A stretch of DNA of 64,000 nucleotides, from the IMG/VR virus record IMGVR_UViG_3300042560_002875; one strand, 5' to 3'. A program made the position numbers and the translations under genes. Within the stretch, counting starts at the first letter, position 1, and every line of letters starts with the position of its first letter. Below, piece by piece: positions 4,203 through 16,527 of this stretch. Under the pieces are notes generated by a model that saw nothing but the letters and a program-made list of their open reading frames with translations, did no database searches and was not told the origin of the DNA. This DNA comes from an uncultured virus (IMG/VR IMGVR_UViG_3300042560_002875) (Duplodnaviria; Heunggongvirae; Uroviricota; Caudoviricetes).

Positions 4203-4670
4203 TTAGGAGAAAGCATTGATACCGGCACTGATGAGAGGCCCGACGCCTGGGATAAAGCTTGCAGCAGAGCTGACAAGTCCGAGGACTCCTCTTCTCCTTT
4301 GTTGTCCTTGGGCCCTCTTTTGTGCTTCCTCCTGGGCCTCCTTCGCAATCTTGGAGGTACTGTCTTGCAGTTTGAAGCCTCTTTCCTGAGCCTCGAGCGC
4401 AAAGTCGTGTTCGTCATCCTCGTAGGCTTTTTGCCAGTCCTCAAGTGAGTCCTGCGCGAAGCTGTCCTTGGCGCCGCTGTATTTGAACTGGGAGCTGCCA
4501 AACTTATTGTCAAATGGATTGAAACTGCTGGAGATATTGCTTTTGTAGGCGGGGTCCTTGTCGAAGGAAGGCCAGGCGCTGGAGCGTGCTTTCCTAGCGG
4601 CGCGTGCTCGATCAAATGCGAGCTTTTGAGACTGCATTCGATCGTCTCTGCCGGCGGAGTAGTAACTCAT
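4203..4670 (-). CDS. Hypothetical phage protein
   Basis: 155 aa; shares an AGR(E/D)D.M..QKLA..RAR motif with the 4667-5098 ORF. Confidence 0.65.
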   Translation of the reverse strand: MSYYSAGRDDRMQSQKLAFDRARAARKARSSAWPSFDKDPAYKSNISSSFNPFDNKFGSSQFKYSGAKDSFAQDSLEDWQKAYEDDEHDFALEAQERGFKLQDSTSKIAKEAQEEAQKRAQGQQRRRGVLGLVSSAASFIPGVGPLISAGINAFS

Positions 4671-5098
4671 GGGTTAAAGGCTTTCGAGGGGTCAAAGCCC
4701 CAAGAGCTACGCGTGTTTAGAAAATCAGAGGTTACATCCCTTACTGCCTGTGGAACCTCATTCCGCCTCGACATATTGAAGGTCGTCTCTATGGGCCGAG
4801 TGTTGTCAGTTTTTGGCCGGAACAATCCCTGCTCCTTTGCAATTCCTAAAGCAGTTGAAGCAGCGTTGGCCGCAGAAGATACCCAGTCCTTCGGCTGGAA
4901 TGGCACCTTGTATTCCTTGGCCATTTTCTCTCCTTGTTTGTATTCATTTTCAAGTAGTTCGCGCTTCTTCTCTCGGGCGCGCTCCAGTGCAAGCTTTTGT
5001 CTTTCCATCTGATCCTCCCTACCCGCAAAGGCGCGATATCCGCCGCCCTCGAAGGCGTTGCTGAACGGACTCGCTCCTGGGTTAAACGGATCGAACAT
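4667..5098 (-). CDS. Hypothetical phage protein
   Basis: 143 aa; ATGA-type overlap with the next gene. Confidence 0.65.
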   Translation of the reverse strand: MFDPFNPGASPFSNAFEGGGYRAFAGREDQMERQKLALERAREKKRELLENEYKQGEKMAKEYKVPFQPKDWVSSAANAASTALGIAKEQGLFRPKTDNTRPIETTFNMSRRNEVPQAVRDVTSDFLNTRSSWGFDPSKAFNP

Positions 5099-13703: not shown

Positions 13704-14420
13704 ATGACCACCCTCACCAAGAACACCGACCTCCTCAAACAGGAGGTCCACGAACACATCACGGCGGATGCCGTCGTCCAGGGTAATTACTGGTCAGACG
13801 GCAAAGGCTGCTTCATCGGGTGCCTGACTTATTCAGGCGACCCCACTCCTGCTGTGGAGCGATTTGGGCTCACTGAGTCCATTCTTCGCATCGCGGAACG
13901 CATCTTTGAATCTCTTCCGCTTGAGGAAGCTAAGCAATTCTTCTTCGACTTTCCCGACGCCGTCGCTATGGACGGTAAAAACCTCTCCTTGATCCATTGG
14001 GTCTTCCTCGGTGAAACCCTAGGAAATCTCCCTCCTCAGCGGCCCGGAATCCAGGCCGTTATTGACCCAGTTATTCATGGCATGGATTTACTGGCTTCTG
14101 GCAACGTCTGGGGGACAGACGCCAGTGCCGCCGCCAGAGACGCCGCCTGGAACGCCGCCGGTGACGCCGCCTGGGCCGCCTCCTGTGCCGGCGCTAGGAC
14201 CGGCTCCTGGGCCGCCTCCTGTGCCGCCTCCTGTGCCGGCGCTAGGACCGGCTCCTGGGCCGCCGCCATGGCCGCCGGTGACGCCGCCGGGGCCGCCTCC
14301 TGCGCCGCCAGGGACGCCGCCTGGAACGCCGCCGGTGACGCCAGTGACGCCGAAACTCGCCGGCAGCGGGACTCCCTGTTGTGGCTCATTCGAGAGGCGC
14401 CTGTTGTGACCCCTTCCTGA
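13704..14420 (+). CDS. Phage protein with Ala/Trp (AARDAAW) low-complexity repeats
   Basis: GKGCFIGC N-terminus; repeated DAAWNAAGDA and AASCAGARTGSW segments. Confidence 0.75.
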   Translation: MTTLTKNTDLLKQEVHEHITADAVVQGNYWSDGKGCFIGCLTYSGDPTPAVERFGLTESILRIAERIFESLPLEEAKQFFFDFPDAVAMDGKNLSLIHWVFLGETLGNLPPQRPGIQAVIDPVIHGMDLLASGNVWGTDASAAARDAAWNAAGDAAWAASCAGARTGSWAASCAASCAGARTGSWAAAMAAGDAAGAASCAARDAAWNAAGDASDAETRRQRDSLLWLIREAPVVTPS

Positions 14421-14460: not shown

Positions 14461-14619
14461 ATGACAGCGCTATACACCCCTCGGCTGCTGCGCGGCGGCT
14501 CCTGGTTCAACTTCCCCAGGGACTGCCCCTCGGCCCATCGCTACCGCGCCCTGCCTGCTGATACCAGCGGCATCATCGGTTTCCGTGTGGTGTACCTCCC
14601 CCGGGAGGTAACACCATGA
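14461..14619 (+). CDS. Stand-alone FGE/CLec variable-region mini-protein, unit 1
   Basis: MTALYTPRLLRGGSWFNFPRDCPSAHRYRALPADTSGIIGFRVVYLPREVTP (52 aa, below the ORF-track cutoff). Confidence 0.8.
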   Translation: MTALYTPRLLRGGSWFNFPRDCPSAHRYRALPADTSGIIGFRVVYLPREVTP

Positions 14620-14774
14620 CAACCCTTGACGCTTCTCGGCTACTGCGCGGGGGCTCCTGGATCTTTTATCCCGGGAGCTACGACTCGGCCTTCCGCTACC
14701 CCTTCCGGTGCGGCGGTGCCTTCAGTTTCATCGGTTTCCGCGTGGTGTACCTCCCCCAGGAGGTAGCGCCATGA
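14616..14774 (+). CDS. Stand-alone FGE/CLec variable-region mini-protein, unit 2
   Basis: MTTLDASRLLRGGSWIFYPGSYDSAFRYPFRCGGAFSFIGFRVVYLPQEVAP; GGAGG RBS and ATGA overlap. Confidence 0.8.
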   Translation: MTTLDASRLLRGGSWIFYPGSYDSAFRYPFRCGGAFSFIGFRVVYLPQEVAP

Positions 14775-15475
14775 CAGCCCCCGCAGTGCGCGGCGGCTCC
14801 TGGGTCAACGGACCGCTTGACTGCCGCGCCGCCTACCGGGGCAGCAGCGACCCGGCCTTCGTCAACTCCGACCTCGGCGTTCGCCCCTGCCGCCTCCTCC
14901 ATCCATCTTCCATTTCTTCAGAGACCATGACTACCTCCAATCACAGCATCTCCGCTTCCGCCCTCAACCTGCCGATGGTTTCCATCGCTCCAGGGCGCTT
15001 CATGATGGGATCCGATTCACCCTCCGCTTTCTCTGATGAGAAGCCGGTCCATGAGGTGATCATCGACAAAGGCTTTGAGATGGCGGAAGCTCCGACCACT
15101 CAAGCCCAGTGGCGATGGGTCGCCGAGAACCTGCCCAAGGTCGAGCGCGATCTCAATCCCGATCCCTCACGCTTCAAGGGCGATGATCGCCCCGTCGAAT
15201 GCGTCTCCTGGTATGACGCCATGGAATTCTGTGCCCGCCTCAGTCAGGCCACAGGTAAGACCTACACCCTCCCTACCGAGGAGCAGTGGGAATACGCCTG
15301 CCGCGCAGGCACCACCACTGAATTCGCTTTCGGTGACACCCTCGATGAGTCCCAGGCACGCTTCAACGCAGATTCCACCTGCGATGTCAAGCAGTACCAA
15401 CCCAACGCCTGGGGCCTCTACGACATGCATGGCCAGGTCTTCGAGTGGTGCCGCAACGAATACAAGCCCTATTGA
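14771..15475 (+). CDS. Circularly permuted FGE-sulfatase (SUMF1/CLec-fold) domain protein; unit 3 fused N-terminally, possible internal start at 14927
   Basis: RGGSW..CRAAYR..LGVR precedes MVSIAPGRFMMGS, PVECVSWYDA, LPTEEQWEYACRAG, PNAWGLYDMHGQVFEWC; stop follows before any C-terminal RGGSW. Confidence 0.85.
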   Translation: MTAPAVRGGSWVNGPLDCRAAYRGSSDPAFVNSDLGVRPCRLLHPSSISSETMTTSNHSISASALNLPMVSIAPGRFMMGSDSPSAFSDEKPVHEVIIDKGFEMAEAPTTQAQWRWVAENLPKVERDLNPDPSRFKGDDRPVECVSWYDAMEFCARLSQATGKTYTLPTEEQWEYACRAGTTTEFAFGDTLDESQARFNADSTCDVKQYQPNAWGLYDMHGQVFEWCRNEYKPY

Positions 15476-15485
15476 TTCCCTGCCC

Positions 15486-15890
15486 ATGCATTCCGATCTG
15501 ATTGGGGGCCGGCTTCGACATTTCATGCATCAAGCCGCCCCCTTTTTCTGCATTGCTATTGCCCTGCTCTGGCATCTTGTCGATGCCTCCTACGCCGCCG
15601 GCAGCCAGCTGCGTCTTGCCCTGGAAGAGCGCAGCCAGCAGCTAGCAGCCCTCCATCTCCACCTCCTCGGCCTCACTCCCCCTGAACCCCAATCCATCCC
15701 TCCTATGACCCTCTCTGTGCCCACTGCGGAAGACCCGGAGCTGACAGCCTTCCGCTGCGCTCTCAATGGAATCGACCTCAGCCTCAATGTGTCCCAGCTG
15801 CGTGCCCTGGCTCGCGAGCGGGGGCACCGCGGCAACAAGGTCTCCCGAGCTCGCCGCTCTGACCTGCTCCTCCTGTTGAGCAGGTCATGA
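15486..15890 (+). CDS. Protein with hydrophobic helix and C-terminal Rho-N/HeH-like motif
   Basis: LNVSQLRALARERG...ARRSDLLLLL. Confidence 0.55.
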   Translation: MHSDLIGGRLRHFMHQAAPFFCIAIALLWHLVDASYAAGSQLRLALEERSQQLAALHLHLLGLTPPEPQSIPPMTLSVPTAEDPELTAFRCALNGIDLSLNVSQLRALARERGHRGNKVSRARRSDLLLLLSRS

Positions 15891-16192
15891 CGCATTATCG
15901 AGTACAACGCGGCGGTACTTGGTTTTACAGGAGGAAACAACAGGCGTATTTACGCTTGGCCTACCGACGCGTCGATAAAGCGCACCACGTAGACGATCTC
16001 GTCGGCTTCCGCGTGGTGTGCCTCCCTCCGGAGGTAGCACCACCTTGGATGCCACTGCCACTGCGCGGCGGCTCCTGGGGCAACCTCCCCGGGGGCCGCC
16101 GCTCGGCCTCCCGCAGCCGCTACCGGCCCGGCTTTGCCTACAGCGGCGTCGGTTTCCGCGTGGTGTGCCTCCCCCGGGAGGAAGCACCATGA
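15887..16192 (+). CDS. Variable-region mini-protein, units 4+5 in tandem
   Basis: RGGTW...GFRVVCLP followed by RGGSW...GFRVVCLP. Confidence 0.8.
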   Translation: MTHYRVQRGGTWFYRRKQQAYLRLAYRRVDKAHHVDDLVGFRVVCLPPEVAPPWMPLPLRGGSWGNLPGGRRSASRSRYRPGFAYSGVGFRVVCLPREEAP

Positions 16193-16527
16193 CAACCCCC
16201 GCAATGCGGGGCGGCTCCTGGTTCAGCGCTCCGCCGGTTCAACTTCCCCAGGAACCGCCGCTCGGCCTACCGCTCGGCTGCCGCGCCGCCAGCCGGCTCA
16301 GCATCAACCCGGCCGACGTCAGCACCATCGTCGGATTTCGCGTGGTGTGCCTCCCTCCGGAGGTCAAGCCCACGCAGGTAGCCATACGCGGCGGCTCCCA
16401 CGCCCAGCTCAACTACCCCTGGTGCCGCTCGACCTGGTGCCGCTCGGCCTGTCGCTGCGTTTGCCATTCGCCCGACTATACCTACGACGACATCGGCTTC
16501 CGCGTGATCTGTCTTCCGCCCTCCTGA
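16189..16527 (+). CDS. Variable-region mini-protein, units 6+7 in tandem
   Basis: RGGSW...GFRVVCLP followed by RGGSH...CRSACR...GFRVICLP; GGAGG and ATGA coupling. Confidence 0.8.
   Translation: MTTPAMRGGSWFSAPPVQLPQEPPLGLPLGCRAASRLSINPADVSTIVGFRVVCLPPEVKPTQVAIRGGSHAQLNYPWCRSTWCRSACRCVCHSPDYTYDDIGFRVICLPPS

Follow-up and report, generated by a model that had tools for sequence, protein, structure and literature searches.

An array of variable-region cassettes related to cyanobacterial retroelement templates on a phage in which no reverse transcriptase was found

Introduction

How does a phage come to carry the variable ends of diversity-generating retroelement (DGR) target genes if it encodes neither the reverse transcriptase (RT) nor the template of such an element? 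This question is raised by a locus on an uncultured virus (Caudoviricetes; IMG/VR record IMGVR_UViG_3300042560_002875), analysed here as one stretch of 64 kb (the window). At 14461-16527 on the plus strand, seven tandem cassettes of about 150 nt each (period ~147-182 nt), numbered here as units 1 to 7, flank a scaffold gene that stops just before the RGGSW variable segment. DGR reverse transcriptases mutate the adenines of a template, by which AAC codons become NNC, and an earlier sequence-only reading of the locus had proposed that the units bear this footprint and that two AAC-rich templates lie outside the window. We put at about 50% the probability that the locus is an array of orphan, host-templated DGR variable-region cassettes on a phage without an RT or template of its own. 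The origin of the cassettes from cyanobacterial-type templates is very probable, and their import by retrohoming in trans is an evenly balanced proposition.

To our knowledge, a DGR is taken to act for the benefit of its own genome, and remote targets are known only within that same genome. Diversification in trans of targets far from the RT and template is documented within one genome (PMC10907252; PMC5758913). A survey which required an RT beside the variable region states that remote targets escape detection (PMC8144416).

Results

Variation by codon position

The two 56-nt stretches in which the footprint had been seen, at 14822-14877 in unit 3 and at 16279-16334 in unit 6, were compared with each other and with the templates described below. 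Both are in frame with open reading frames (ORFs), which start at 14771 and 16189 respectively. They differ from each other at 13 of 56 nt and, as had been stated, all of these differences are at positions 1-2 of nine NNC codons, with none at position 3. If the codon positions were equally likely to change, the chance of 13/13 differences at positions 1-2 would be (2/3)^13 = 0.005, and ordinary divergence would favour position 3. Units 1, 2 and 5 had been described as a second family with mostly the same pattern, which is a fair account of a less clean case. Pairwise these three units differ at 33-37 of 129 nt, with 11-14 differences at position 1, 14-17 at position 2 and 5-10 (mostly C/T) at position 3.

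As a family-wide control, cassettes of 32 residues were collected from the window and from 78 related viral loci, which gave 93 unique ones. Hypervariable codon columns carried 1.5-1.98 bits at positions 1-2 and 0.5-0.7 bits at position 3, where the base was C in 85-90% of cases, T in about 10% and A or G in 1-3%; conserved codons carried 1.1-1.6 bits at position 3. Variation at positions 1-2, a third base of C or T and the impossibility of stop codons make up the AAC-type codon design, and the cassettes have it. Selection on the protein could not produce third positions that are most constant in just those codons which vary most, whereas adenine mutagenesis templated by AAC or AAT codons could.

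Templates outside the phage

Both kinds of AAC-rich template predicted to lie outside the window were found, in lake metagenome contigs and cyanobacterial genomes and not in the phage. For the first of them (template A, related to units 3 and 6), metagenome contigs were scanned with a query consisting of the bases common to units 3 and 6, the variable codon positions being left open, and 15 loci were returned. A single AAC-rich copy (translation CRAANRNSNHPANVNTNNGVRPCCL) was present in six metagenome contigs. Between this AAC-rich copy (CRAANRNSNHPANVNTNN) and the template reconstructed mechanically from units 3 and 6 there are 2 differences in 56 nt. Template A adjoins an RT: in L233 and L241, the two contigs on which adjacency was checked, it is located shortly downstream of the gene for a 366-aa RVT_1 protein (E 2e-21).

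Other metagenome contigs hold full FGE-sulfatase genes (profile positions 4-252) which end in variants of template A. In these host variants the mismatches to template A that fall at adenines number 17/17, 12/12, 10/10, 11/13, 10/12, 12/14 and 9/11; one further variant (L242) is less clean, with 11 of 18 mismatches at adenines. One metagenome contig carries both a variant and the AAC-rich copy. Judged by its sequence, the template A system is a working DGR; its neighbours include an IS1595 transposase and DUF2887/DUF4351. The phage units stand in an adenine-specific relation to this external template. Of the 17 adenines within the 56 nt, 10 are mismatched in unit 3 and 9 in unit 6; of the 39 other sites, each of the two units is mismatched at 1.

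The second template (template B, with a 32-residue translation) is located in genome G235, labelled as an uncultured cyanobacterium. Compared with this template, its own variable region has changes at 15 of 28 adenines against 1 of 101 other sites. For unit 5 the corresponding counts are 20 of 26 adenines and 4 of 89 other sites (Fisher p 1.6e-13). At non-adenine sites a match of 92% or more to template B is reached by 13 cassettes, which come from seven viral loci. With respect to their 3' ends, units 1, 2 and 5 are of variable-region type (CCCCCAGG/CCCCCGGG) and not of template type (CCCCCAGCA); they have GCCTCCCCC(A/G)GG in common with host variable regions, where the template has CAGCA instead. 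Mismatches to the two real templates concentrate on adenines with p values from 1e-5 to 1e-13, and at the level of the cassette family they fall almost only at template adenines, the mark of a variable region. At the template B locus itself (L256, on G235:C1, ~1640-2890) the RT frame seems to be broken into several frames between a WD40-FGE target and the template, and this DGR copy may rely on the intact RT of contig C26.

A DGR with template A, 80% identical in the RT-template stretch, was present in G234 (labelled as a Cyanobium sp. metagenome-assembled genome, MAG) and in G235, with the RT adjoining the template in both. A second Cyanobium MAG (G233) has template or variable-region copies, and all three genomes carry photosystem reaction-centre genes. 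The closest cellular relatives of the phage scaffold are mostly cyanobacterial, as read from the record labels of 71 loci without a tally, and the phage MazG and lysozyme genes are ~70% DNA-identical to Cyanobium-type genomes. We infer lake picocyanobacteria as the presumed hosts of the phage. Seven cyanobacterial templates returned by a first genome scan (L167-L227) were rejected as the template of any window unit, their identity being 48-69%.

Search for a reverse transcriptase in the phage

The window covers 64 kb of the 87-kb siphovirus-like genome of a lake phage and is collinear with a complete viral record, G002. The sequence-only reading had found neither an RT nor a template repeat in the window, and the wider search agreed: there was no RVT_1 match among its 64 ORFs and no adenine-specific pair of cassettes, and a DNA profile of the cassettes matched nothing but the locus itself, in the window, in G002 and in G003 (a second complete relative, 88 kb, with terminal repeats). 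Nor was RVT_1 found by Pfam among the 25 ORFs of the part of G002 outside the window (89 ORFs in all), and a six-frame family search returned no RT from G002, G003 or 54 further viral records with scaffold relatives. Among these 56 records, 15 have a completeness of 90% or more. Counting a viral fragment described below (L266), RVT_1 was present in 0 of 57 viral records. The search took 50 of the 72 remaining viral loci, the other 22 being mostly duplicates, and as a positive control it did recover the cyanobacterial DGR RTs. The DGR RT lineage was absent from the viral collection.

A template repeat and a DGR-type RT in the same genome were therefore seen in cyanobacterial genomes and metagenome contigs and not in the phage. 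The idea that one cassette serves as the template of another was rejected, as the highest adenine fraction of mismatches was 0.59 (204 pairs, 79 loci). A self-BLAST scan for templates gave 1 weak pair in 79 viral loci versus 8 of 71 cellular loci.

Structure of the array

Each unit consists of a ~120-nt variable region and a ~30-nt linker which provides a ribosome-binding site and an ATG. The protein of a unit reads M-x(4-9)-RGGSW, about 25 variable residues and then GFRVV(C/Y)LP, with a GVRPC ending also occurring, and it corresponds to the C-terminal variable segment of the FGE-sulfatase/C-type-lectin fold, as in DGR target proteins of that class. The linkers are homologous to one another, which indicates that the array grew by duplication inside the phage, while the cores differ at templated sites.

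All units are on the plus strand. Unit 1 (14461-14619; MTALYTPRLLRGGSW...GFRVVYLPREVTP) and unit 2 (14616-14774) are 52-aa mini-ORFs of the template-B type, the former identical in the relative G002. At the 3' ends of both, GGAGGT, six bases and ATGA form a ribosome-binding site and start codon for the next unit, and the 3' end of unit 2 (CCTCCCCCAGGA) is identical to that of host variable regions. Unit 3 (14771-14926) consists of a template-A-type cassette (RGGSWVNGPLDCRAAYRGSSDPAFVNSDLGVRPCRLL) and its linker and is fused in frame upstream of the scaffold gene (14927-15475). Behind the scaffold lies a 134-aa ORF (15486-15890) with no family match in Pfam or PHROG, followed by units 4 and 5, which form a single 101-aa ORF (15887-16192). 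Unit 4 (to about 16042) is degenerate and contains K and Q; among the variable regions of the template-B type, the cleanest is that of unit 5 (about 16043-16192). The part containing units 4 and 5 differs strongly between the window and G002.

Units 6 and 7 also share one ORF (16189-16527; repeat families D6, D7 and D16). Unit 6 is a mosaic of three cassettes, in which the cassette DNA profile gives two separate matches; its pieces are a cassette start, an out-of-frame piece resembling unit 1, a core of the template-A type and a 3' end of the B type. Unit 7 is degenerate, with GGSH and a 15-nt internal duplication, and the 15-nt stretch is absent from other contigs. The units number seven and are not six clean ones, unit 6 being a mosaic and units 4 and 7 being degenerate.

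Two smaller observations concern the array. At the junction of units 1 and 2 (14593-14597), L011 and one lake contig (X4) have an extra base in the run of C, which in X4 accounts for 8.2 of 24.4 depth; this base fuses the two units into one ORF, a toggle resembling phase variation. The 134-aa ORF has a hydrophobic N-terminus and a basic, helix-rich C-terminus, and is present in 4 of 5 relatives and absent in L012. It looks like an insertion into a former cassette, its first residues, MHSDL, being common with the post-scaffold cassette ORF of L012.

Scaffold and tip

The 182-aa scaffold (FGE-sulfatase, C-type-lectin-like) matches Pfam PF03781 with E 2e-37 over profile positions 5-194 of 255, and PHROG 18508 over positions 13-202 of 266. 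Its PF03781 match is not full length, the last ~60 positions being missing, whereas host targets cover 4-252. The scaffold ends in ...EWCRNEYKPY*, exactly where the RGGSW segment would start, and this stop point is identical in all five close relatives. Many database proteins have 1-4 N-terminal cassettes followed by a scaffold which ends at the same boundary. Because the split is conserved in the five relatives and the boundary is shared by many database proteins, a real architecture is suggested, in which the fold would be either permuted or complemented in trans. The recurrent layout of cassette before scaffold is a candidate circular permutation of the lectin fold. The fused ORF of unit 3 and scaffold is 234 aa long; in an AlphaFold2 model (18 sequences) the predicted local distance difference test score was 70-93 over most of residues 61-180 and below 35 over cassette residues 1-34. 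We infer expression of the mini-ORFs and joining of the cassettes to the scaffold.

Related layouts were seen elsewhere. In P0010, P0015, P0019, P0022, P0033, P0046, P0048 and P0111, N-terminal cassettes, each after a Met, precede an FGE scaffold. In L014, L020, L022, L025, L027, L028 and similar viral loci (~4570-4810) two tandem cassettes lie 124, 127 or 130 nt apart, a spacing which is always 1 mod 3. The main ORF of this type has the first cassette out of frame (read as an Ala/Ser/Thr/Pro-rich linker) and the second in frame, and the junction GGGAAAG of L014, seen once, is a possible -1 slippery site giving an alternative C-terminus.

Replacement among relatives

The core of unit 3 has been replaced allelically among close relatives. 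Between the 234-aa protein of the window and P0144 there are 16 differences in the 24 core residues, none in the 28 residues of flank or linker and 2 in the 182 of the scaffold. Among the trio P0003, P0146 and P0004, 11-13 of 24 core residues differ versus 7-11 of 182 in the scaffold. All core residues of this allelic series (the window protein, P0144 and the trio) can be encoded by NNC.

The scaffold has 31-52% protein identity to host targets, whereas cassettes and templates are 90-97% identical at non-adenine sites; the cassettes being so much closer to the templates than the scaffold is to host targets, the tips would be of far more recent date than the scaffold. Nowhere does the similarity to host DNA extend beyond the stretch that template and variable region have in common. 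Taken together, the gap in identity, the confined host similarity, the homologous linkers with differing cores and the allelic series suggest that the tips postdate the rest and were exchanged in situ.

The second array has at least two co-existing haplotypes between identical flanks, the window-type haplotype having a depth of 9 versus 67 in X5 and of 5.3 versus 55 in X7. These haplotypes look like products of recombination. A joint of 14512 to 14875 seen in X7 and X11 was not counted as a second allele of unit 3, as its flank has only 26 letters, and a scan of the viral records for the DNA of alternative unit-3 alleles returned only L012 itself.

Discussion

The reading of the locus as host-templated cassettes would entail the following course of events. 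Units would have arisen through tandem duplication inside the phage, and their variable cores would have been written from two template families located next to DGR RTs in lake picocyanobacteria. During infection or lysogeny, host RT and template RNA would make adenine-mutagenised cDNA, which would home into DNA having a short 5' homology (CTGCGCGGCGGCTCCTGG) and a GC-rich 3' end of variable-region type (GCCTCCCCCAGG); the phage cassettes carry both. Such writing in trans is suggested by the allelic series. The phage would in this way gain new binding tips for a split lectin-like protein without encoding the machinery, and recombination and one-base changes of the C-run at unit junctions would then shuffle, fuse or separate units.

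Several results weigh against this course of events. The relation to the templates is imperfect: compared with template B, unit 1 shows changes at 17 of 26 adenines and also at 10 of 93 other sites, and unit 2 at 21 of 27 and 15 of 94; in an alignment of 119 nt with template A, the mismatches of unit 3 number 13 at adenines and 9 elsewhere. The nine non-adenine mismatches imply that the true template of unit 3 is a sister of template A, and by this comparison the templates found are sisters, the exact cognate ones not having been found in the scans. The phage cassettes keep ~12 nt of a candidate host 3' recognition region resembling an initiation of mutagenic homing (IMH) element. Decay or a mosaic make-up is seen in units 4, 6 and 7. 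No letter of units 1-3 differs in G002 or in lake contigs of 2020 and 2024, these being consensus contigs, which cannot show rare variants; either rewriting seldom happens or the contigs conceal rare variants. The letter changes among lake contigs are not adenine-specific, and the orthologous cassettes of L011 have few, scattered changes, some of them synonymous, which look like ordinary drift.

The nearest 'genome', G001, only holds a binned phage contig, which stops before the array. G001 was rejected as a DGR-bearing host, its single RT reading, by its motifs, like a group II intron protein. In the G001 family (176 genomes) there was no cassette-like DNA beyond noise and the RT similarity to DGR was only weak. 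G001 had no photosystem reaction-centre match at 96% completeness, and for that reason is probably not a cyanobacterium.

A further adverse finding is an unmutagenised copy of template B in a phage-style mini-ORF on a viral fragment (L266, on G236, ~1480-1760). This cassette has changed at 0 of 26 adenines and 6 of 94 other sites, on a fragment of 26.8 kb (31% complete) with no RT. A copy with all its adenines intact could not arise by mutagenic retrohoming, so plain DNA capture from host DGR loci also takes place. A second, diverged cassette directly follows the template-like one.

The L266 cassette speaks for the strongest competing explanation, which is recombinational capture: short-homology recombination, at the conserved 5' and 3' ends of the cassettes, would have brought the cores into the phage as DNA copies of host variable regions or templates. 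There would be no reverse transcription on phage DNA, and the phage would sample the output of host DGRs without itself being a DGR target. The mosaic of three cassettes in unit 6 and the haplotypes of the second array, co-existing between identical flanks, are what such recombination would leave, the phage has Gam-like/Gp157 and SSB genes, and the 3' flank markers (CGCGTGGTG) remain phage-type in the template-B-related units. Set against this, the homology arms measure only about 17 and 15-30 nt, host homology never passes the boundaries of template and variable region, as transfer limited by a cDNA predicts, and no phage cassette is identical to a host variable region, in what is a tiny sample. 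We regard capture as somewhat unlikely, yet it is the alternative to be taken most seriously.

Quite improbable is the view that the units are fossils, left by an ancestor which had a complete DGR or captured cassettes once, and that they now only drift, duplicate and recombine and no longer serve as targets of diversification. The constancy of units 1-3 in G002 and the 2020 and 2024 contigs, the degenerate state of units 4, 6 and 7, the third-position C/T drift in units 1, 2 and 5 and the non-adenine mismatches to the best templates all fit it. A phage-borne ancestral element is nevertheless unsupported, given an RT in 0 of 57 viral records and the absence of the RT lineage from the viral collection; the unit-3 core was replaced between proteins with 2/182 scaffold differences, and the non-adenine identity of cassettes to templates (90-97%) is far above the identity of the scaffold to host targets. 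Ordinary mutation with diversifying selection on a binding surface in a GC-rich genome, without any retroelement, can be dismissed, because although C is the commonest third base in the genes of this phage (40%), third positions are less variable in hypervariable than in conserved codons, codons ending in A or G are nearly absent, and the adenine-concentrated mismatches to real templates already contradict it.

The reading of host-templated cassettes may be compared with several known systems. In the silent-cassette antigenic variation of Neisseria pilS/pilE and Borrelia vls, partial gene copies lie near an expression site. The phage array is like these in its partial copies, conserved ends, variable cores and mosaics, and is unlike them in that its cassettes have their own start codons and a diversity marked by adenine mutagenesis from an external retroelement. 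Bordetella phage BPP-1 reportedly encodes its own Avd, template and RT next to its target (Mtd), a lectin-fold binding protein with a DGR variable tip, and is said to have a GC-rich 3' recognition element and a nearby hairpin-forming repeat. The phage described here likewise has a lectin-fold protein with a DGR-type variable tip; unlike in BPP-1, no RT accompanies it in any of the 57 viral records.

Closest are the cyanobacterial chromosomal DGRs with several remote FGE-sulfatase/C-type-lectin targets (PMC7517822, PMC10907252 and PMC5758913, category b). The phage cassettes belong to the same variable-region class (GGSW..CRSA/CRAA..GFRV/GVRP) and have the same AAC-rich templates, and the order variable region, RT, template is present in L167, L173, L186, L233, L241 and L250. 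They differ in lying on another replicon, a virus without RT and template, and in forming tandem, scaffold-less mini-ORFs of ~50 aa where the cyanobacterial targets are C-termini of large multidomain proteins. Passages of PMC5758913 describe TvpA of Treponema denticola (PDB 2Y3C) as an FGE-type DGR variable protein. Unlike TvpA, the phage scaffold stops before the variable segment, which is supplied upstream in a permuted fusion or as mini-ORFs. In the literature searched there was no account of orphan variable-region arrays that are carried by phages and match host templates, which is not proof of absence.

If the link is functional, this would be the first case of DGR output crossing the boundary between host and virus, whether by writing on phage DNA or by capture of written tips. 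Surveys limited to the vicinity of RTs miss a class of phage hypervariable loci. The system is concrete and testable, comprising one phage lineage, two template families and an allelic series. Its protein layout is unusual, a lectin-fold scaffold being cut exactly before its variable tip, with the tips present as separate or N-terminally fused modules.

A more far-reaching interpretation, which we consider doubtful, is that the virus exploits the hypermutation retroelement of its host, the cassettes being minimal 'landing pads' which mimic host DGR targets so that the host RT rewrites phage genes. The mini-proteins and the permuted scaffold could then be self-renewing phage binding proteins. 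Host DGR-diversified lectin-fold proteins are proposed as immune sensors in passages of one paper (PMC10907252), and the cassettes could alternatively be decoys which copy the tips of such sensors and jam them. Were the landing-pad interpretation true, it would point to a common, undescribed layer of the arms race between phages and cyanobacteria, since many unrelated RT-less lake phage contigs have cassettes which match the same cyanobacterial template.

Further features

The other genes of the window, as identified by Pfam and PHROG, include Gp157/Gam-like, GP88, VapE-like, ThyX, MazG, SSB and lysozyme genes, with a weak integrase match. Upstream of the array lies a 238-aa ORF (13704-14420, plus strand), the C-terminal half of which is an array of 16 copies of a 12-nt (4-aa) repeat, AA(W/G)(N/D)AA.... 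Neither Pfam nor PHROG gave a match for this ORF, and its DNA is weakly similar to hypothetical genes of Skermania and Pseudomonas phages; a search of a phage collection returned low-complexity matches only, and these were to this repeat gene. Beyond the window, in the 18500-43500 region of G002 (L229, L230), there are two genes for LAGLIDADG homing endonucleases, a protein of 2364 aa whose carbohydrate-binding matches are weak, and a Gp80 fibre-like gene.

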